Shown here: piece by piece, positions 5,392 to 25,917 of the stretch | Numbering within the stretch: the stretch's first letter is position 1 | Layout: each line of letters begins with the position of its first letter | Source: Phascolarctobacterium sp. | Lineage (GTDB): Bacteria > Bacillota > Negativicutes > Acidaminococcales > Acidaminococcaceae | Direction: 5' to 3' | NCBI GenBank assembly: GCA_034086985.1 | Contig: JAXDZG010000002.1 | Span: 50,944 to 114,943 of the forward strand | Length of the DNA: 64,000 bases | Position numbers and translations under genes: made by a program | Notes under the pieces: model-generated | What the model was told of the DNA's origin: nothing | Seen by the model: the letters and a program-made list of their open reading frames with translations, nothing else | Databases searched by the model: none

Positions 5392-5466
5392 ATAGGCGGG
5401 TATAAGCAAATAAAGTAGGCTATTTTTCCCAAAGGTATAAATTATGCGGTGATTGGGGTAGATGTG

Positions 5467-6876
5467 ATGAAGCGCTATGCTGGAATGATTTCAATATTGC
5501 TTTTCATAGCGCTGGATTATGTGGCCTTGGTCGCAGCGGAGCAGTGCGCTTTTTATATGCGCAACAACTTTTTTAGAACAAGCACACTGCATATTTCATG
5601 GATAAACTTTTGGATTATATTCCCATGCCTTTATATTTTTTTCATAAATATGAATCAGCTCTATAGTCGCCTCCGTCCCTTTTACAAGGAAGTGGAAAAG
5701 CTTTTCGTGTCTTCCTGCTATGGGACCTTGGCCGTGGTTTTGCTGCTTTATATTGCCAAGATTTCTGAGCATACCAGCCGCTTTTTTGTGGTGGCCTTCG
5801 GTGTTTTGGCGTTTATCTTTTTAGCATTAATGCGCTATCTTTTAAAGAACCTTTTGCAGAGACGGCAGATGCTCTTGGCACCCGTAATTATTATTGGTGC
5901 CGGCAAAACGGCGGAGCTTTTGGTGAAGTCCTTGCGCAACGACCCAGGTATGGGCTACAAGATTATTGGCCTATTGGAGGATAACAAGGTACAACAGGGC
6001 ATTCTTGAGCAGTACCCTGTTCTAGGCGGTTTCCAAGATGCGGAGCGCATTATTATGGAAACTGGTGTGAAGCGAGTTTTTGTGGCGGCTCCGGGCTTGG
6101 CGGATCATGATTTAGGCATGCTGATTTATCGCATCCAGCCTTTAGTAAAAAATATGGGCGTTATTACAAATCTGGTGGGCGTGCCCACTGGCACCGTCGA
6201 GGTGGAAAGCATTTTTAATGAAAAGCTTTTAATCCTGCGCCTTAAGAATAATTTAGCTAGACCTTTAAACAGATGCATCAAGACAGTTTTGGATTATGCT
6301 TTGACCATCATTGGCACGGTTCTTATTGCTCCGATTTTGCTCTTCATTGCACTTTGGATTTATAAGGATTCTCCAGGGCCAGTGATTTATAAGCATGTGC
6401 GGATTGGTAAGGGTGGCAAGGCCTTTCCCTGCTATAAATTCCGTAGTATGGTGATGAATTCCAAGGAAATGTTGGAGGAGATATTGGCTAAGGATCCGGC
6501 TGCTCGCGCTGAGTGGGAGGGGGATTTTAAGCTGAAGAATGACCCACGCATTACGAAAAGTGGTGCTTTCCTGCGTAAGACTAGTCTTGATGAGCTGCCG
6601 CAGATTTTTAATGTTTTGCGAGGGGAGATGAGCCTTGTGGGGCCGCGTCCCATTGTGCAGGAAGAGCTGGCTCGCTATGGCGAGTTTGTGGATGATTATC
6701 TAATGGTTAAGCCGGGGATTACCGGCATGTGGCAAGTTAATGGTCGCAGCGACACTACCTATGACGAGCGCGTACAGATGGATAGCTGGTATGTGCGGAA
6801 CTGGAGTGTGTGGCTGGATTTTATGCTGCTGTGGAGAACGATTAAGGCTGTGGTTGCTGGAAAGGGAGCATATTGA
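5467..6876 (+). CDS. wbaP: Undecaprenyl-phosphate sugar-1-phosphate transferase (WbaP-type initiating PGT)
   Basis: N-terminal TM helices; C-terminal KFRSM, DPRIT..G.FLRKTSLDELPQ, GEMSLVGPRP, KPGITGMWQV. Confidence 0.9.
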   Translation: MKRYAGMISILLFIALDYVALVAAEQCAFYMRNNFFRTSTLHISWINFWIIFPCLYIFFINMNQLYSRLRPFYKEVEKLFVSSCYGTLAVVLLLYIAKISEHTSRFFVVAFGVLAFIFLALMRYLLKNLLQRRQMLLAPVIIIGAGKTAELLVKSLRNDPGMGYKIIGLLEDNKVQQGILEQYPVLGGFQDAERIIMETGVKRVFVAAPGLADHDLGMLIYRIQPLVKNMGVITNLVGVPTGTVEVESIFNEKLLILRLKNNLARPLNRCIKTVLDYALTIIGTVLIAPILLFIALWIYKDSPGPVIYKHVRIGKGGKAFPCYKFRSMVMNSKEMLEEILAKDPAARAEWEGDFKLKNDPRITKSGAFLRKTSLDELPQIFNVLRGEMSLVGPRPIVQEELARYGEFVDDYLMVKPGITGMWQVNGRSDTTYDERVQMDSWYVRNWSVWLDFMLLWRTIKAVVAGKGAY

Positions 6877-19016: not shown

Positions 19017-20496
19017 TTTGGGCTCAGCTGTAATAACCTTTTTAGCAGAGCAAATTAAAAATGTGCGCATTGCCGTGCTTGGTGATGTGATGCTGGATAG
19101 ATATTTCCATGGCGAGGTAAAGCGCATCTCCCCGGAGGCGCCGGTGCCGGTGACGAAAATTAATCGCATTAAGTCGGTGCTGGGCGGTGCTGCCAATGTG
19201 GCAGCAAATCTGGCTCATTTGGAATGCCAGGTTTTCATGGGCGGTGTGACCGGTGATGATGAAAACCGTGTGCTCTTAGAAAAGCTCATGGATGCGGCTG
19301 GCATTAACCACAGTGGCTTGGTAAAAAGCGCTCGTCGTAAAACTATTACGAAGCTGCGCGTGCTAGGCGGTAATCAGCAAATGCTGCGTCTTGATTTCGA
19401 GGAAACCGGCGATTTATATCCTGAAGAAATTGTGGAGCTGCGCCAATGGCTGGCTACTCTTTTGGATCAGGGCTTGGATGGCATTATCGTCTCCGACTAC
19501 GCTAAGGGCGTGTGCTCCGACGTTTTTTGCCAATGGGTGATTAATCAGGCCCATGCGTATAATATCCCTGTCCTCATCGATCCCAAGGGCGCGGACTGGA
19601 CTAAGTATCGTGGCTGCGATTTTATCACTCCCAATTTGAAGGAAATGTGCGAGGCAGCTGGCTGCACTCGCGATAATGAGGATGGCGCGGTAGTGGAAAT
19701 GGCCCGCGCTGCCAAGGATAAATACCACATTAAAAATGTGGTGGTTACCCGCAGCGAGCGGGGCATGTCCCTCGTCAACGACAGCGAGGTGCTGCACAGT
19801 CCGGCCACAGCCATCGAGGTTTTTGATGTGTCGGGCGCAGGCGATACGGTGGCAGCTACGCTGCTGGCCGGCGTGGCCGGCAAGCTGGAGCTGGCGGACG
19901 CCATCTACATGGCCAACCGAGCCGCCGGCATCGTGGTGGCGAAGGTTGGCACCTATCCCGTGCATCGGGACGAGCTGCTGAAGGATTTGCTCACCGAGGA
20001 GCGCAAGCAGGGCCGTGGCTATAGAACACTGAGCTGGCAGGAAATCGCTTCCTTAGCCGCAACATGGAAGGCCTGCGGTGAGAAAATCGTCTTTACTAAT
20101 GGTTGCTTTGATATCCTTCATGTGGGTCATGTAACCTATTTGGAGAAGGCCCGTAACTTAGGCAAGCACTTGATTGTGGGCCTGAACACGGATGCTTCCG
20201 TGCGTCGTCTGAAGGGCGAAACCCGTCCGCTAGTGCACGAGATGGACAGAGCAAGAGTGCTGGCAGCCTTGGCTTGCGTGGATGCGGTGGTGCTGTTTGA
20301 CCAAGATACGCCTACAGAATTAATCGAAAAAATTCGCCCCGATATTCTGGTCAAGGGCGGGGATTATCGTCCCGATCAGGTGGCAGGCCGTGAATATGCG
20401 GGCGAGGTACGCATTATAGAGTTTGAAGATGGTTATTCCACCACTGGAGTAGTAGAAAAGATTGCCAACATGGTGAAGCGAGGAGATATATTATGA
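19006..20496 (+). CDS. hldE: Bifunctional heptose-7-P kinase / heptose-1-P adenylyltransferase
   Basis: [30 protein letters not shown] (kinase); [19 protein letters not shown] (nucleotidyltransferase). Confidence 0.95.
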
Positions 20497-21512
20497 CTAT
20501 TATCGTAACCGGTGGTGCCGGATTTATTGGTTCAAATTTTATATTTCACATGCTGGAGAAGTATCCAGAATATCGCATTATCTGCTTGGATAAGCTGACC
20601 TATGCAGGTAATTTGTCTACTTTAGAGAGCGTTATGGATAACTCGAATTTCCGCTTTGTAAAAGCAGATATCTGTGATAGAGAAGCAGTGTATAAGCTTT
20701 TTGAAGAAGAGCATCCTGATATTGTAGTTAATTTCGCAGCTGAAAGCCATGTGGACCGTTCTATTGAAGACCCTGGGATTTTCTTAGAGACCAATATTAA
20801 AGGTACTGCTGTGCTGATGGATGCTTGCAGAAAGTACGGCATTAAGCGTTATCATCAAGTTTCTACAGATGAAGTATATGGTGATTTGCCTTTGGATAGA
20901 CCAGATTTGTTCTTCACTGAGGAAACTCCTATTCATACTAGCAGCCCGTATTCTTCGTCCAAAGCTGGTGCAGATTTGTTGGTTATGGCGTATCATCGTA
21001 CTTATGGCTTGCCTGTGACTATTTCCCGTTGCAGCAATAACTATGGGCCCTATCACTTCCCTGAGAAGCTCATTCCCTTAATGATTGCTAATGCGTTGGC
21101 AGATAAACCTTTACCGGTATATGGTGAGGGGATTAATGTGCGTGACTGGCTCTATGTTGAGGATCACTGTAAGGCCATTGATTTGATTATTCATAAGGGT
21201 AGAGTAGGAGAAGTTTATAACATCGGTGGGCATAACGAGATGCGTAACATTGATATTGTGAAGCTGATTTGCAAGGAATTAGGCAAGCCTGAAAGCTTGA
21301 TTACCTATGTAACTGACCGCAAAGGTCATGATATGAGATATGCAATTGATCCGACTAAGATTCATAATGAATTAGGTTGGCTGCCTGAGACCAAATTCGC
21401 TGATGGCATTAAGAAAACCATTAAATGGTATCTTGAGAACAAAAAATGGTGGCAGGATATCATTAGTGGTGAATATCAGAATTACTATCAAAAAATGTAC
21501 GGTAATAGATGA
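20493..21512 (+). CDS. rfbB: dTDP-glucose 4,6-dehydratase (RmlB)
   Basis: GGAGFIGS, FAAESHVDRSI, STDEVYG, YSSSK, PEKLIP, RDWLYVEDH. Confidence 0.97.
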   Translation: MTIIVTGGAGFIGSNFIFHMLEKYPEYRIICLDKLTYAGNLSTLESVMDNSNFRFVKADICDREAVYKLFEEEHPDIVVNFAAESHVDRSIEDPGIFLETNIKGTAVLMDACRKYGIKRYHQVSTDEVYGDLPLDRPDLFFTEETPIHTSSPYSSSKAGADLLVMAYHRTYGLPVTISRCSNNYGPYHFPEKLIPLMIANALADKPLPVYGEGINVRDWLYVEDHCKAIDLIIHKGRVGEVYNIGGHNEMRNIDIVKLICKELGKPESLITYVTDRKGHDMRYAIDPTKIHNELGWLPETKFADGIKKTIKWYLENKKWWQDIISGEYQNYYQKMYGNR

Positions 21513-21573: not shown

Positions 21574-21792
21574 TTACTGAATGGCTAGCTCCTTCATCAG
21601 CTCTTTACGATAAGTCTTATCTGTGATTACGCGGTCAACATCCTCATTTCTACCCATAGATTTAAGCTTGGTAAGTAAGGCAGCGAAGCGGTCTTCACCA
21701 ATTGCTAAACCACGAGCTTCACCAGTAGCTTCACCTTCGTTATAGCCTTCGGCTCTACTAATCTTCCGAACGAGATCTAAAGTTTTACCCAT
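21574..21792 (-). CDS. Candidate in-frame intragenic small protein (RpnS-like antitoxin, 72 aa)
   Basis: AAAGGAGAUG SD-like sequence 8 nt before in-frame ATG (MGKTLDLVRK...) inside the rpn ORF. Confidence 0.5.
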   Translation of the reverse strand: MGKTLDLVRKISRAEGYNEGEATGEARGLAIGEDRFAALLTKLKSMGRNEDVDRVITDKTYRKELMKELAIQ

Positions 21793-22425
21793 AGTCGTGT
21801 CATCTCCTTTAACTTTTCGCATAGCATCAGCCAAGACAGGATAGTGCATCTCTTCTGGCTTAGTACATTTAAAATCGCTAATTAATTTACCAATATCGTC
21901 ATTGCCGATATAGTTGTTATTTACATAGAGAATATGAGCCCTGTCCTCAAAAGGAATGCCTAGATTGGTGACAGTGCGTTCTATCGGATAGAGAGGCAAA
22001 TTGCGCTTCCATCTATCGCCAGTGAAAAAGATTACATATGTTGTAGGCAAAGCCTTAAAGTCAGCCTTGATGGGCAGATTATGTACATCAATAGAGCTGC
22101 TGTAATAGCGAGCACGTTCAGGGGTAGCACCGCTAGTCAGGTTTTGCACTTCAACATTATAGATGTTATTGTTATCATCCTTAGCGAGAATATCTAAACG
22201 CACAGACCTATAGCCATGATTCCTTAAGGGATACTCAGTTTTTGTGCTCTCAACAGTGAGCTTCTTGTCCTTTAAAAGTACATTGAGCAGAAGCTGGGAG
22301 CAAGCCTTTTCTTTAAAGACTTTTTTCAAGCAATGATGGTCTGTGAGCTTAGTCTCTTGGGCAATCTTTTTGGTAATAGCCTTGCGAACCTTTTTGTCGG
22401 ACAGGTCAAGTTTGATCATTTTCAT
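21574..22425 (-). CDS. Rpn family (PDDEXK_2) recombination-promoting nuclease / putative anti-phage toxin
   Basis: DHHCLKKVF, VRLDILAKD, NVEVQ, RARYYSS.ID, C-terminal EG..EG...G repeats. Confidence 0.88.
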   Translation of the reverse strand: MKMIKLDLSDKKVRKAITKKIAQETKLTDHHCLKKVFKEKACSQLLLNVLLKDKKLTVESTKTEYPLRNHGYRSVRLDILAKDDNNNIYNVEVQNLTSGATPERARYYSSSIDVHNLPIKADFKALPTTYVIFFTGDRWKRNLPLYPIERTVTNLGIPFEDRAHILYVNNNYIGNDDIGKLISDFKCTKPEEMHYPVLADAMRKVKGDDTTMGKTLDLVRKISRAEGYNEGEATGEARGLAIGEDRFAALLTKLKSMGRNEDVDRVITDKTYRKELMKELAIQ

Positions 22426-22590
22426 TATAACACGATCCTTTGCAATTTACTAGCGCTAGGGGTGGATTTTTGTAGGTGCCCGACCTACTATAGTCATAAT
22501 AGCACAAATAGTCAGATAAATCAAGCCTTAATAAGAAAATTTTTATATATTAGAAAATTACAAGAGCGTTTTGCGCTTCGAGGTACTACC

Positions 22591-25500
22591 ATGTCGATTT
22601 TTGACAGCTTCACCAGGAGGAACAGTTTAATAAAGACACTGCGCTTCAGGCTAGAGCCCATGTTTGGGACTAGTGAGCAGCTGGCAAAAATAGGCGTGCT
22701 GGAGCGCGATCAAGAGCGCAGCGAGAACTGGGAAACAGTGCGCGCAGTGCTGCGCCGCGTGGATGCGTCGTTTGTAGAAAAGGCGCTCACAGAAGAAGTG
22801 GATTTGGACTGGCGGCCGCTAGCAACAGCATTAAAAGCAAAGAATGCTGTATACGAAAATGAAAAAAATAATAGTAATGAGATAGAGCTGTCACAAGATG
22901 AAAGTGGCAAGAAAGCTTTGCTACAGTCAGAAAAGAATAGGGCTGAGATTAGCAAAGAGCTCGTAAAGCAGCAGGCAGAGATGCGCAAAGCAGTGGCGAA
23001 GCTGCTGACAAAGCATGGCGATTATAAGAACATTACCAATCCGACCAAAGCCATAAAAATGGCGGCGGAGGCAGTACAGAGTGATGCTGAAGCGCGAGCG
23101 GTGGCCCAGTATCTGCGCTTTACTACAGTGTTAACAGATTATTTTGCCCATAAAAAAGCCTATTTTGGCCATGAAGTGAGAAGGACAACAATCGCTTACC
23201 GCATCGTGCACGTAAATTTTCCTATCTATCTGGAAAACTTGCGCTTAATGAAGCAATATGCTCAGGCTGGGTTGGACTTACAAAATAAATTTATCTTTAC
23301 TTATTTAGAAATTAATGGCTACAACAAATGCTTGGTGCAGAGTCAAATCGATAGCTATAACCAAGCTGTTGGCCAAATCAATAAACAGCTGCGGCGGCTA
23401 TATGCCGAGCACAAGCTACCGGAAACTTTAAAAGGTGTGCCACTAAAGCTCAAGGCGCTGCAAAAGCAAGTGCTGAGCGTGGGCGAGGAAAAGCCCATAG
23501 AGTTTGCTAAATACGCGGACATGCAAGCAGCAGTGCAGGGCTTACAGGAAGCGCTGGCGCAACGGTTCAGTGGCTTAGAGCAAGCCTTCAGTCAATGTGA
23601 GGGAGAGCTGCAAGATGAGTACGCAGCTAAGCAAGAGACCGTAACAGAAGCCTCCAAGGCGCTGCTTTTTAGAGAGCAAGAGGTAGCGAGTATCGTCTCC
23701 ATTAAGGATTATCTAACGGCAGTGCTAGCCTTAAGGCGTTTCGTGAAAGGAGTGCTTCGTGAAGAGGTACAGCAATATAAAGGGCAAGCTCAGAGCTCTG
23801 AGAATGCTCTAGTAGCTGAAGATGCTTCGCAAGCTGATGCTGAGGCCAAGCAAAGGCTTTCTCTCGCCTGCAGTGAAGCCTGGGAAATATTAGCTAGTGT
23901 ACCTCAGCTATACGCCAAGGTGCGCAATTACTTAACCCGCAAGCCTTATAAGCAGGAGAAAATTAGACTCTTTTTTGACTGCGCTGCCTTTGGTAAGGGC
24001 TGGGATGTGAATAAAGAGGCCGCTTATTTAGTAAACTTGTTTAGGCGGGACAGTCATTACTATCTTGGCATCAGGCGCCAGGGAGCGAAAATAGATTTCG
24101 ATGCCATAGCGACTAAATGTACCGAGCAGGAGCCATGCTACGAAAAGATGGTCTACAAAGCCTTTGATTTCATCAAGGGCATGCCCGCTGTAGTCTTTTC
24201 CAAAATGATTTTGCAAAAATTTGTAGACGGTGCTAGTGAAGTGGTGCTAGAGGGTGAGCAATTCAGCCAGCCTTTAGTAGTAACCAGAGCGGATTTTGAA
24301 CAAAAATACTATGTAGAGAATGGTAAGCTGCGGGAGCGCGAGCCTGAGGATGTGCCCTATCTCAAGCAGTATCTAACTAAAACAGGGGATGAGGCAGGCT
24401 ATAAAGCGGCAGTGTCCCAGCGCATAGAGCTAGCCAAGCGTTTTATAAAAGCCTATAAAACCTTCGCCTTTTTTGATATGTCCAAGCTGCGAGCCACCCA
24501 AGACTATGACTCTTGGATAGAATTCATTACCCATGTGAACGAATTTACCTATGGCTTAAGCTGGCAAAAAAATTCCGAAGCAAGCCTAAAGCAGTTAGTG
24601 GAAAAGGGTGACTTGTTTCTATTTCGCTTGGAGAACCGCGACTTTATGCGCGATGCCAGCGATGAAGTAAGTGGGGACGAGCAAACCCAGCTGTGGCGCG
24701 CCTTGTTTAGCCAGCTAAATCAAGAAGATCGCATCCTGAAGCTTTTGGGCGGTGTGGAAGTGTACTACCGTCCGGCTTCCGCGCCTGCCAAGGTAAGTCA
24801 CAAGCAGGGCAGTGTTATCGTCAACAAAATAGACAGCGAGCATAATCCCCTGCCAGCGGAGCTCGTGCGTAATATTAGTCACTATTTAAACGGCAAAACT
24901 AAAAAGCTCTTACCAGAAGCGGCTCAGCTCATGGCCCAAGACAAAGTAAAATGGAAACAAGCGGCTCAGGATATCATCAAGGATAAACGCTATACCCAGG
25001 ACCAAATGCTAGCCCATTTTCCCATAGCCATCAACTATCGCTGTGCTAGCAACGATTATAGCTTCAACAGGGATGTGCGAGAGTTGCTGCAGGGGAATAC
25101 CGCAGTCAATATTTTGGGACTGCATTTGGGTGGCGACAATTTGGCTGAGGCAGTCATTCTTGACCAAAACGGCAAGCAGCTTTATGCCAAGGCTTATAAT
25201 CAATTCAATAATTATAATTACTACCAAGCTCTTGTATTGCGAGATGAAGCAAGGAAGCAGGCCCAACGAAACTGGCTGCAACAGCAAAAGATTAAGAATC
25301 TTCGCCAAGGCTTTATGGCAGCCCTTACTAATGAAGTGTGCAAGCTCATTTTAAAGTACAACGCCGTGGTTGTGCTGGAGGACTTCAGTAAGAACAAGGG
25401 TAGTAGGGGAGCGGCGCCCAAGCTCTATATGCAGTTTGCGCTGAATCTACTGCATAAGCTTAATTACTTAGTACTCAAGGAACGCGAGCCCATAGAGCCA

Positions 25501-25764
25501 GGAGGACTGCTGCAGGGCTATCAGCTTGCTCCCAAGGTAGTAAGCCTAGCGGGCTTTGCCAACCAAATTGGCTGCGTTCTTTTCGCCTTACCTAGCAATG
25601 GGGAGGGCGAGCCTGAGGACATGTCCGAGGCCTATTTATTGGCCTTAAAGGGCTGCCTCATGGTGCAGCGCATCCACCAAGCCAAGAGCTTGGATAAAGT
25701 AGATTTTATGCTAAAGCAAAAACAGTGGCTTGGCTTCCTCAAGGAGCGAGACTTCAGCTCCTAA
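22591..25764 (+). CDS. cas12a: Cas12a (Cpf1)-like protein, predicted nuclease-dead and lacking the Nuc domain; orphan, 1057 aa
   Basis: MSIFDSF...SLIKTLRFRLEP (WED-I), IAYRIVHVNFPIYLEN (REC1), YAKVRNYLTRKPY, GWDVNKE, LFLFRLENRDF, IIKDKRYT..HFPIAINY, NAVVVLE, GGLLQGYQL, AYLLALKG are colinear with AsCas12a; RBS GAGG precedes ATG 22591. Confidence 0.93.
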   Translation: MSIFDSFTRRNSLIKTLRFRLEPMFGTSEQLAKIGVLERDQERSENWETVRAVLRRVDASFVEKALTEEVDLDWRPLATALKAKNAVYENEKNNSNEIELSQDESGKKALLQSEKNRAEISKELVKQQAEMRKAVAKLLTKHGDYKNITNPTKAIKMAAEAVQSDAEARAVAQYLRFTTVLTDYFAHKKAYFGHEVRRTTIAYRIVHVNFPIYLENLRLMKQYAQAGLDLQNKFIFTYLEINGYNKCLVQSQIDSYNQAVGQINKQLRRLYAEHKLPETLKGVPLKLKALQKQVLSVGEEKPIEFAKYADMQAAVQGLQEALAQRFSGLEQAFSQCEGELQDEYAAKQETVTEASKALLFREQEVASIVSIKDYLTAVLALRRFVKGVLREEVQQYKGQAQSSENALVAEDASQADAEAKQRLSLACSEAWEILASVPQLYAKVRNYLTRKPYKQEKIRLFFDCAAFGKGWDVNKEAAYLVNLFRRDSHYYLGIRRQGAKIDFDAIATKCTEQEPCYEKMVYKAFDFIKGMPAVVFSKMILQKFVDGASEVVLEGEQFSQPLVVTRADFEQKYYVENGKLREREPEDVPYLKQYLTKTGDEAGYKAAVSQRIELAKRFIKAYKTFAFFDMSKLRATQDYDSWIEFITHVNEFTYGLSWQKNSEASLKQLVEKGDLFLFRLENRDFMRDASDEVSGDEQTQLWRALFSQLNQEDRILKLLGGVEVYYRPASAPAKVSHKQGSVIVNKIDSEHNPLPAELVRNISHYLNGKTKKLLPEAAQLMAQDKVKWKQAAQDIIKDKRYTQDQMLAHFPIAINYRCASNDYSFNRDVRELLQGNTAVNILGLHLGGDNLAEAVILDQNGKQLYAKAYNQFNNYNYYQALVLRDEARKQAQRNWLQQQKIKNLRQGFMAALTNEVCKLILKYNAVVVLEDFSKNKGSRGAAPKLYMQFALNLLHKLNYLVLKEREPIEPGGLLQGYQLAPKVVSLAGFANQIGCVLFALPSNGEGEPEDMSEAYLLALKGCLMVQRIHQAKSLDKVDFMLKQKQWLGFLKERDFSS

Positions 25765-25774
25765 ACAATATGTC

Positions 25775-25818
25775 AATACCTACTAGTTAGGCGAAGTATG
25801 TGTGTTAAAATTGTAGGC
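25775..25818 (+). CRISPR. Single degenerate Cas12a-repeat-like hairpin plus possible spacer (mini crRNA candidate)
   Basis: AATACCTACTAGTTAGGC vs canonical handle AATTTCTACTNNNGTAGAT, with compensatory T-A to C-G stem change; 11 nt after the cas12a stop; not a multi-repeat array. Confidence 0.45.
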
Positions 25819-25875
25819 TTGGATGCTTAAACAAAATGCTTTAAGACGGCCGCGAAAATTGTTCATAAAGACCAA

Positions 25876-25917
25876 TAAAAAACCGCTACACCCCAGATGA
25901 GTGTAGCGGTAATTTTT
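25876..25917. terminator. Bidirectional terminator between cas12a-like and fba
   Basis: ACCGCTACAC / GTGTAGCGGT stem with A-run before and T-run after. Confidence 0.8.

Follow-up and report, generated by a model that had tools for sequence, protein, structure and literature searches.

The stretch of DNA analyzed here, a 64,000-nucleotide window of a Phascolarctobacterium genome, carries a gene for a Cas12a-derived protein with a single guide unit downstream, placed among glycan, Rpn-like, and housekeeping genes without cas1, cas2, or cas4. The features on which our reading draws are as follows:

5449 to 6876, + strand: sugar-phosphate transferase gene (PF02397), which opens the glycan locus ending immediately upstream of the dead Cas12a gene
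22591 to 25764, + strand: gene for the nuclease-dead Cas12a-derived protein without a Nuc domain (1057 aa, starting MSIFDSF)
23995 to 24015, + strand: WED PAM-reading motif KGWDVNK, with K469 (= As S542) and K475 (= As K548), placed by three alignments
24175 to 24204, + strand: PI-domain helix KGMPAVVFSK, in which K529, G530, P532, A533, and K538 correspond to As K603, M604, P606, K607, and K613
25123 to 25125, + strand: codon of H845, which replaces the RuvC-I catalytic Asp (As D908), GIDRGE having become GLHLGG
25775 to 25792, + strand: degenerate Cas12a crRNA 5' handle, AATACCTACTAGTTAGGC, with the stem CCTA/TAGG; an overlapping 18-mer recurs exactly elsewhere
25793 to 25816, + strand: fixed guide ("spacer"), its first 11-14 nt conserved between loci
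25817 to 25851, + strand: second conserved module of 35 nt, probably a degenerate second repeat, with the hairpin CTTAAA/TTTAAG
25882 to 25910, no strand assigned: terminator hairpin that closes the gene-plus-guide transcription unit and is shared with a convergent aldolase gene

The protein has the WED-REC1-REC2-PI-RuvC fold of Cas12a, as judged by Pfam, profile alignment, and Foldseek. Pfam matches RuvC_1 and REC1, with weak matches to REC2 and PI (PI E=0.009). HMMER pairwise alignment and the family profile are collinear with AsCas12a (PDB 5B43) up to RuvC-II, residues 1-951 of the profile aligning with AsCas12a 4-1073 in a single stretch, and the AlphaFold model (pLDDT 83) matches Cas12a structures with TM-scores of 0.63-0.71 in Foldseek. 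As in Cas12a, the pre-crRNA RNase residues H800, K809, and K860 are present, here as H737, K746, and K797, although the RNase His is a Tyr in 3/15 family members. In contrast to Cas12a, the protein is nuclease-dead. The RuvC triad is incomplete: D908 has become His (family members have H, R, or Y), E993 is intact, and the RuvC-III Asp, D1263, is kept in the window copy and lost in most members. Furthermore, the Nuc domain is deleted from all members (~190 residues, As 1067-1259), and Pfam finds no match to PF18510 (Nuc) in the 1057-aa protein. In a tree built with FastTree, the dead protein falls within Cas12a, with the full-length P0109 and P0110 as its sister group; no searched genome of the family contains P0109.

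Purifying selection acts on the whole protein (dN/dS 0.135 against the G071 copy, dS 0.64), and the PI domain is its most constrained part (dN/dS 0.088); between more distant copies, synonymous sites are saturated. The gene is patchy in the genus, occurring in 5/43 other species, and the G060 copy is disrupted by two stop codons. Full-length copies of 45-90% identity occur in many metagenomes; a metagenome scan returned only 3 loci, all short.

The constraint on the PI domain bears directly on how this protein may recognize DNA. The preliminary description, made from the letters alone, had pointed to the motifs GKGWDVNKE and IKGMPAVVFS and had equated K469, K475, and A533 with AsCas12a S542, K548, and K607. 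Both motifs are present in the translated gene: positions 23995-24189 (+) read KGWDVNKE...DFIKGMPA, from K469 (codon 23995-23997) through K475 (24013-24015) to A533 (24187-24189). The equivalences hold in three alignments, namely HMMER pairwise alignment against AsCas12a and AmCas12a chains, a MAFFT alignment of 21 sequences, and an alignment of 122 sequences. Among 15 family members, position 542 (As numbering) is Lys in all (21-sequence MAFFT) and at position 548, 13 have Lys and 2 have Arg, while position 607 is Ala, Gly, or Ser in every member and never Lys, the residue that would have told against the proposed rewiring. One of the two PAM-reading lysines is thus retained (K548 as K475) and the other replaced (K607 by A533). 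Within the PAM-reading helix, substitution affects the central base-reading Lys and spares the flanking K529 and K538 and the proline P532; A533 lies within a confident helix, 527-535, of the AlphaFold model, its equivalence to K607 coming from sequence alignment.

These substitutions are unusual among Cas12a proteins. Of 116 other representatives, 90 carry K, 9 carry R, and only 2 carry S at position 607; K at position 542 is limited to 7 of them. The rewired pattern is nonetheless not exclusive to the dead family, judging from aligned natural sequences: elsewhere, a basic 542 accompanies a non-Lys 607 (5/8 vs 18/106, p=0.008), and P0110, the nearest full-length relative, is a natural Arg542/Arg607 form. 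The dead family shares with the engineered AsCas12a RR variant (S542R/K607R, PDB 5XH7) a basic 542 and, at the candidate sites described below, C at PAM position -2; unlike AsCas12a and the RR variant, it has Ala, Gly, or Ser at 607 rather than Lys or Arg. In AsCpf1, the single change S542R suffices for strong activity on TTCC and TCCC PAMs (bioRxiv 10.1101/091611). Ala mutants at the 607-type Lys of canonical enzymes lose most of their activity (PMC7817983), and thus binding by the dead protein may be weak. Because the PI domain is the most constrained region and the helix lysines and proline are kept, the sequence evidence argues for re-tuned PAM reading rather than its loss.

A guide unit follows the stop codon, with no promoter-like site between the two. 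The 18-mer overlapping its handle occurs exactly in 8 places in 6 genomes, always immediately 3' of the family gene; elsewhere in the family, the class sample, and viral contigs it is absent beyond chance. In the second module, hairpin pairing is possible in 91-94% of cells, with covariation that is not significant among the 8 sequences, and RNAalifold favors pairing of handle to seed, also without covariation. Rfam returned no match. The repeat pattern of canonical Cas12a systems (TCTAC..GTAGA) was not found, nor was a canonical type V-A system in the genome or a CRISPR array in the window or the whole genome; a periodic repeat on contig C6 was rejected as an array because it is a protein repeat. 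An upstream hairpin (22462-22490) was also set aside as a core element of the family, as it is unique in the genome and found only in the syntenic loci of G000 and G071. The window system combines a fixed, conserved guide with a dead nuclease under purifying selection.

Candidate target sites for the guide number four, with seed matches of 11-13 nt, in three genomes (one in G000, two in G079, and one in G072). The coding sites each cover the codons for KFRSM in a sugar-phosphate transferase gene at the head of another glycan operon. In G000, the best genomic seed match (G000:C2:169903) lies outside the window, in a different locus, where a PF02397 gene encodes KFRSMC; no other 11-nt seed match occurs in the genome, and at 18/24 this one ties for the best overall match. 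In G079 the gene is present twice and so is the site, both sites lying in genes that come first in their glycan operons: guide b and site C36 share a rare A at position 10, giving a 13-nt seed, and for guide a, which has a mismatch at seed position 2, C44 is the unique match with <=2 mismatches in 18. The G072 site is non-coding, in the leader of a wzz-first operon at about +36 from an 11/12-consensus promoter, and retains AAATTCA plus 17 nt, its 7-nt 5' flank being identical to that of the coding sites. This exact type of site occurs in 3/44 genus genomes, all three of them gene carriers; in G071 and G082, which have both gene and guide, we found no site. Where a locus contains the dead Cas12a gene, its transferase gene has CGT as the Arg codon and evades the seed, as in the window, where the KFRSM codons (~6433) use CGT and give no guide match. 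The genome-wide scan found no seed match at the gene's own promoter (near 22426-22590), and phage matches were limited to chance-level hits to Pseudomonas phages. The idea that the PAM-distal half of the guide co-varies with its target within each genome was rejected by the full guide-by-site matrix; because guide and sites are both AT-rich, PAM-distal matches are not clearly genome-specific.

All four sites are flanked by TTCA at the PAM position. The warning that TTTV-restricted searches could miss the real site is supported, in that the only candidate natural protospacers found carry TTCA and such a search would have passed over them; target searches for this family must not be limited to TTTV. 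However, the four sites derive from one conserved motif, so that they amount to one or two independent observations in favor of TTCA. At each site the guide reads in the sense direction of the mRNA and would pair with the template strand, the arrangement in which DNase-dead Cpf1 represses best (PMC5460296).

From the substitutions and their conservation, the loss of the nuclease, the conserved guide unit, and the TTCA-flanked matches, we infer DNA binding, a PAM preference, guide processing, and repression by the dead Cas12a. The protein may be a natural RNA-guided gene silencer that has lost its nuclease and whose guide matches the lead genes of rival surface-sugar clusters. In this model, gene and guide unit would be transcribed together, and the conserved WED RNase site would excise the guide from the 3' UTR. 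The domesticated protein would still load this crRNA-like guide and bind double-stranded DNA beside a PAM. Its PAM pocket would be re-tuned by exchange of the minor-groove Lys (As K607) for a small residue and addition of a Lys at the major-groove position As S542, two changes that together would accept a C:G pair at PAM position -2, and hence TTCA or TTCV rather than TTTV. The complex would pair with the template strand through the 11-13-nt seed and a few further bases, either where the first gene of another surface-glycan operon encodes KFRSM or in that operon's 5' leader, and would block transcription in the manner of CRISPRi. We favor a reading in which the protein binds DNA under guidance by RNA, depends on a TTCV-like PAM, and represses rival glycan loci; our confidence in it is evenly balanced. 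A fuller version we offer more tentatively: that these proteins are trans-locus silencers, by which one glycan locus shuts rival operons at their first gene or leader via a TTCV-type PAM (Lys469 present, minor-groove Lys removed), and that they form the reduced extreme of a broader clade of Cas12a proteins, naturally RuvC-dead and regulatory rather than immune, that includes P0109 and P0110.

Alternatively, PAM reading may essentially still favor T-rich, TTTV-like PAMs through other contacts, the transferase match being due to chance or shared ancestry and the true target unknown or lost. The seed length is near single-genome chance, with about one 11-nt match expected per genome; two carrier genomes lack a site; and the G000 site sits in a truncated transferase gene of a decayed locus, although the protein is under purifying selection. 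Moreover, wild-type AsCpf1 already cuts TTCV weakly (bioRxiv 10.1101/091611), so TTCA flanks are no proof of an altered preference. We nevertheless consider this explanation rather unlikely, as three genomes repeat the match at the same functional site, including the position-10 variant, with two sites for two gene copies in G079, one in an operon leader in G072, and a consistent strand orientation at all four.

A further possibility is that loss of the Lys607 equivalent removes PAM discrimination altogether, leaving specificity to the guide. The preliminary description had proposed rewired reading that was non-TTTV, relaxed, or PAM-independent; loss of Lys607, gain of Lys at 542, retention of Lys548, and the TTCA flanks agree with the first part, while PAM independence appears unlikely. 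A small residue at 607 in all members, the change of M604 to Gly, the weak Pfam match to PI, and the loss of TTTV-dependent activity in K607A-type mutants (PMC7817983) are all consistent with relaxation. Yet no part of the protein is under stronger constraint than the PI domain; K475, K529, P532, and K538 are retained; and an invariant new Lys469 occupies a position facing the PAM duplex. The non-coding G072 site keeps the 7-nt 5' flank of the coding sites, and an enzyme without a PAM requirement would settle on the DNA that encodes its guide, where AGGC occupies the PAM position. We judge relaxed or PAM-independent binding improbable.

RNA targeting, also raised in the preliminary description, fares worse. 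Loss of the nuclease and Nuc domain with retention of the RNase site might suggest an RNA-targeting or RNA-binding protein, either Cas12a2-like or a processing or sequestering factor, and RNA-targeting Cas12a relatives are on record (PMC12669027). However, the guide shares the sense of the mRNA at each of the four candidates, which leaves the template DNA strand as its only possible pairing partner; the duplex-reading parts of WED and PI and the wedge helix are conserved; and a search of the genome found no canonical type V-A system or array with which to interfere. This reading is very improbable. That the gene is a decaying relic without present function, as the broken G060 copy and the patchy occurrence might suggest, is scarcely credible against a dN/dS of 0.135 at a dS of 0.64, full-length copies in many metagenomes, and an invariant RNA element.

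Returning to the proposed PAM-dependent silencer, we can compare it with known systems. With Cas12a it shares the guide layout, the handle lying 5' and the spacer 3', and the placement of the PAM 5' of the protospacer; the dead family differs in having one hard-wired guide in place of an array and cas1/2/4. The guide unit may also be likened to CreR of type V-A systems, a mini-array of degenerate repeat, spacer, and degenerate repeat that represses without cleavage (bioRxiv 10.1101/2023.03.10.532045). In CreR, one degenerate repeat provides the handle, the spacer is partly complementary to a chromosomal site beside a PAM, and the second repeat is strongly degenerated; the layout here fits this plan, with a probable second repeat and a partial match at a candidate site flanked by TTCA, although there is no cognate canonical repeat for comparison. 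CreR partners with an active Cas12a in a system with a normal array alongside, and it targets the cas12a promoter at a TTTA PAM (bioRxiv 10.1101/2023.03.10.532045), whereas here the protein itself is nuclease-dead, its guide unit is in the 3' UTR, the gene's own promoter is unmatched, and the flank is TTCA.

Full-text searches and classification papers yielded no description of the dead-Cas12a family or its function, and if our reading is true, this would be the first natural Cas12a-derived transcription regulator we have found described. It would also represent a natural solution to the PAM change that engineers reached by S542R/K607R, and could provide a compact (~1000 aa), self-processing, DNase-free, non-TTTV binder for CRISPRi and base-editor scaffolds.

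The broader context may be the choice of surface structures. TldR, which derives from TnpB (PMC10705468), and the DNA-binding-only Cas12c, Cas12m, and Cas12k resemble the present system in their inactivated RuvC and adjacent fixed guide, with a host surface-structure gene as the likely target, a combination that points to RNA-guided transcription control. Unlike TldR, the dead Cas12a has a large Cas12a ancestry rather than a TnpB or small Cas12 one, keeps its self-processing site and 5' handle, and has candidate targets inside or just before the first gene of a glycan operon. If our reading is true, it would connect RNA-guided control with the choice of surface glycans in a genus abundant in the human gut. 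UpxZ proteins are trans-locus inhibitors of Bacteroides capsule loci, small proteins that act on the UpxY antiterminator. In both cases a factor of one surface-polysaccharide locus would switch off transcription of others, the mechanism proposed here being RNA-guided DNA binding.

The PAM-reading residues lie within window 23995-24189 (+), which translates as KGWDVNKE...DFIKGMPA and falls in an open reading frame that opens at 22333 and encodes a protein ending at 25764. Translation most likely begins with the ATG at 22591 (MSIFDSF...), giving a 1057-aa protein; the upstream part of the frame overlaps a divergent PDDEXK_2 gene, and MSIF begins all homologues. On this numbering, HMMER pairwise alignments with solved Cas12a chains equate AsCas12a S542, K548 and K607 with K469, K475 and A533, exactly the residues named in a preliminary description of this DNA, and M604-I605-P606 with G530-M531-P532. 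The same columns are recovered in a 21-sequence MAFFT alignment and in a 122-sequence alignment, neither of which places a Lys at the 607 equivalent, and the family profile (1-951) matches the AsCas12a chain (4-1073) in a single collinear stretch.

The protein belongs to a family encoded in Phascolarctobacterium gut MAGs; members are ~1000 aa long and share 45-90% identity. All 15 aligned members carry Lys at position 542; at 548, 13 have Lys and the other two Arg; at 607, every member has Ala, Gly or Ser and none has Lys (0/15). In 116 other Cas12a representatives, obtained by searching 1.84 billion proteins exhaustively, position 607 is mostly Lys (K 90, R 9, N 5, H 4, S 2), position 548 is Lys in 97, and position 542 is Lys in only 7. 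Judged by these columns, the rewiring of PAM reading that had been proposed for this protein is more than chance and holds family-wide.

The lysines flanking the altered position in the PI helix are retained (K529 and K538, equivalent to AsCas12a K603 and K613), as are P532 and, largely, REC1 T167; the M604 equivalent is Gly. Between the source genome and G071, another carrier of the family gene, dN/dS is 0.135 for the whole protein (dS 0.64) and 0.088 for the PI region, the lowest among the regions tested. The AlphaFold model (pLDDT 83.2; 83-94 in the PI region) places A533 within helix 527-535, and the structures it resembles most are those of AsCas12a and AmCas12a (TM-scores of 0.63-0.71, normalised to the query). 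We read the PAM-duplex-binding module as maintained and re-tuned, not degenerating. The earlier suggestion of a PAM-independent binder thus fares poorly, because constraint on the PI region and retention of K529, P532 and K538 favour a protein that still depends on a PAM.

Nuclease function has been dismantled by comparison with Cas12a proper, whose hallmarks (nuclease, Nuc domain, K607 and array) this protein lacks. RuvC-I GIDRGE has become GLHLGG, with His in place of D908 (H, R or Y across the family). E993 is retained, D1263 is retained in the source genome's copy and lost in most members, and a segment equivalent to AsCas12a 1067-1259, including the whole Nuc domain, is absent from every member. 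The pre-crRNA RNase residues H737, K746 and K797 are retained. No cas1, cas2 or cas4 occurs near the gene, and no CRISPR array was found in the window or in the 2.25-Mb genome. A k-mer scan did pick out an array-like ~90-100 nt periodic repeat outside the window, at G000:C6:2200-3000 of the source genome, which we rejected as a glycine-rich protein-coding repeat; the gene is autotransporter- or adhesin-like.

P0109 (1264 aa) and P0110 (1235 aa), the closest relatives of full length, have a NUC domain and carry Asn at the RuvC-I Asp. In a FastTree phylogeny of 40 Cas12a sequences they form the clade (P0110,(P0109, family)), with SH-like support of 100 and 99, so the catalytic Asp was probably lost before the Nuc domain was deleted. 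Positions 542/548/607 are unusual throughout this clade, reading R/K/R in P0110 and E/S/K in P0109; with Arg at both 542 and 607, P0110 is the natural equivalent of the engineered RR variant. In non-family Cas12a, basic residues at 542 are associated with a non-Lys 607 (5/8 versus 18/106; 122-representative alignment; Fisher p=0.008, not phylogeny-corrected), which suggests that this pairing is a recurrent alternative PAM-reading configuration.

A conserved element lies 10-20 nt past the stop codon of every family gene with an available 3' end. In the window it comprises:

25775-25792, AATACCTACTAGTTAGGC, an AAU prefix and CCUA/UAGG stem with a U-rich loop, resembling a degenerate Cas12a 5' handle
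25793-25816, putative spacer, beginning GAAGTATGTGT
25817-25851, 35-nt module with a CTTAAA/TTTAAG hairpin and the length of a Cas12a repeat, probably a degenerate second repeat

The AT-rich portion of the spacer differs in sequence and length between loci. Across six genomes of the genus, the 18-mer ATACCTACTAGTTAGGCG has eight exact copies, each immediately 3' of a family gene, and this identity persists while synonymous sites of the family genes are saturated. It had no further copy in 140 Acidaminococcaceae genomes and was not found in viral contigs, and 401 genomes of the class gave only chance-level mismatched matches. There is no promoter-like site between gene and element, and a terminator lies downstream. 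The layout is that of CreR, the regulatory mini-arrays of active Cas12a (bioRxiv 10.1101/2023.03.10.532045). AGGC stands at the PAM position of the guide-encoding DNA, which would guard that DNA only if binding still depends on a PAM.

A whole-genome scan of the source genome with the 24-nt guide returned one 11-nt seed match, joint-best overall at 18/24 (about one such seed is expected per genome by chance). It lies 55 kb beyond the window, at G000:C2:169903, on codons for KFRSMC, the signature motif of PF02397 polyprenyl-phosphate sugar transferases. The surrounding glycan locus (G000:C2:168927-171241, also outside the window) is decayed and reads PF02397 transferase, WxcM/FdtA-like gene fragment and rmlB without its N-terminus; the transferase is truncated after about residue 373 of 475, beside other gene fragments. 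The dead Cas12a protein is under purifying selection although this site sits in a decayed gene.

Genome G079 has two dead Cas12a gene copies and three transferase genes. Its guide b (GAAGTATGTATAT...) matches the gene on contig C36 over a 13-nt seed that shares a rare A at position 10, and for its guide a, with a mismatch at seed position 2, the gene on C44 is the only off-self match with at most two mismatches in 18. Each of these two candidate targets opens an operon rich in glycosyltransferase genes. The third transferase of G079 and the one in the window (5449-6876) each head a locus with a dead Cas12a gene at its 3' end; in both the Arg codon is CGT, which breaks the seed. In G072 the same 24-nt island (AAATTCA + 17 nt) is non-coding: an 11/12-consensus promoter lies ~36 nt upstream of it and a Wzz-like first gene follows ~100 nt downstream.

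Only 3/44 genomes of the genus, all three carriers, contain the exact site type TTCAGAAGTATGTRTDT, and the genome with two gene copies contains it twice; the hypergeometric probability of this overlap is 0.0015, a figure to be read with the relatedness of the genomes, which are not independent. Two carriers, G071 (89% complete) and G082 (99% complete), have the module and yielded no site. In G060 (97% complete), which has no PF02397 gene, the family gene (L027 / G060:C100:73574-76585) is interrupted by two stops, one TGA and one TAA, and the downstream guide element is intact. PAM-distal matches between guides and sites are not genome-specific.

At all four candidate sites the guide corresponds to the non-template strand, so pairing would be with the template strand; inside genes, DNase-dead Cpf1 represses best with the guide against that strand (PMC5460296). 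This orientation also rules out pairing with mRNA, which makes the RNA targeting that the preliminary description had entertained unlikely. Its warning that TTTV-restricted searches could miss the real site was well founded, since TTCA precedes all four sites; as these derive from one conserved motif, the PAM evidence amounts to one or two independent observations.

In Cas12a, K548 contacts the PAM through the major groove and K607 through the minor groove. Ala at this Lys (AsCpf1 K607A and the matching Lys in LbCpf1) abolishes most activity (PMC7817983), S542R by itself makes AsCpf1 much more active on TTCC and TCCC, and S542R/K607R prefers TYCV, with the wild type cutting TTCV only weakly (10.1101/091611). 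Given these mutant effects, it is coherent that an invariant Lys 542 and a small 607 residue go together with TTCA next to the candidate sites. On structural reasoning, a G:C pair at -2 would place the amino group of guanine in the minor groove, where Lys607 would sit, and would leave O6/N7 open to a basic side chain on the major-groove side. The evidence fits a double-stranded-DNA binder that still depends on a TTCV-like PAM better than it fits a PAM-less binder or one that targets RNA.

From comparative sequence data, the best overall description is a dead Cas12a that has been domesticated together with a single hard-wired, CreR-like guide; the two plausibly silence rival surface-glycan operons. 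Functionally the system resembles TldR and the Cas12 effectors that only bind DNA, and possibly also UpxZ of Bacteroides. The searchable literature yielded no account of such a dead Cas12a family.

Upstream, the minus strand carries a PDDEXK_2 (Rpn-like) gene (21574-22590) between the dead Cas12a gene and an rmlB-like gene (20493-21512), the last glycan gene before it. It occurs at this place only in the source genome and G071; in G060 the Cas12a-like gene directly follows the rmlB-like gene. The same two genomes share an intergenic hairpin (22462-22490) with a compensatory change, GTAGGT/ACCTAC in the source genome versus GTAGGG/CCCTAC in G071.
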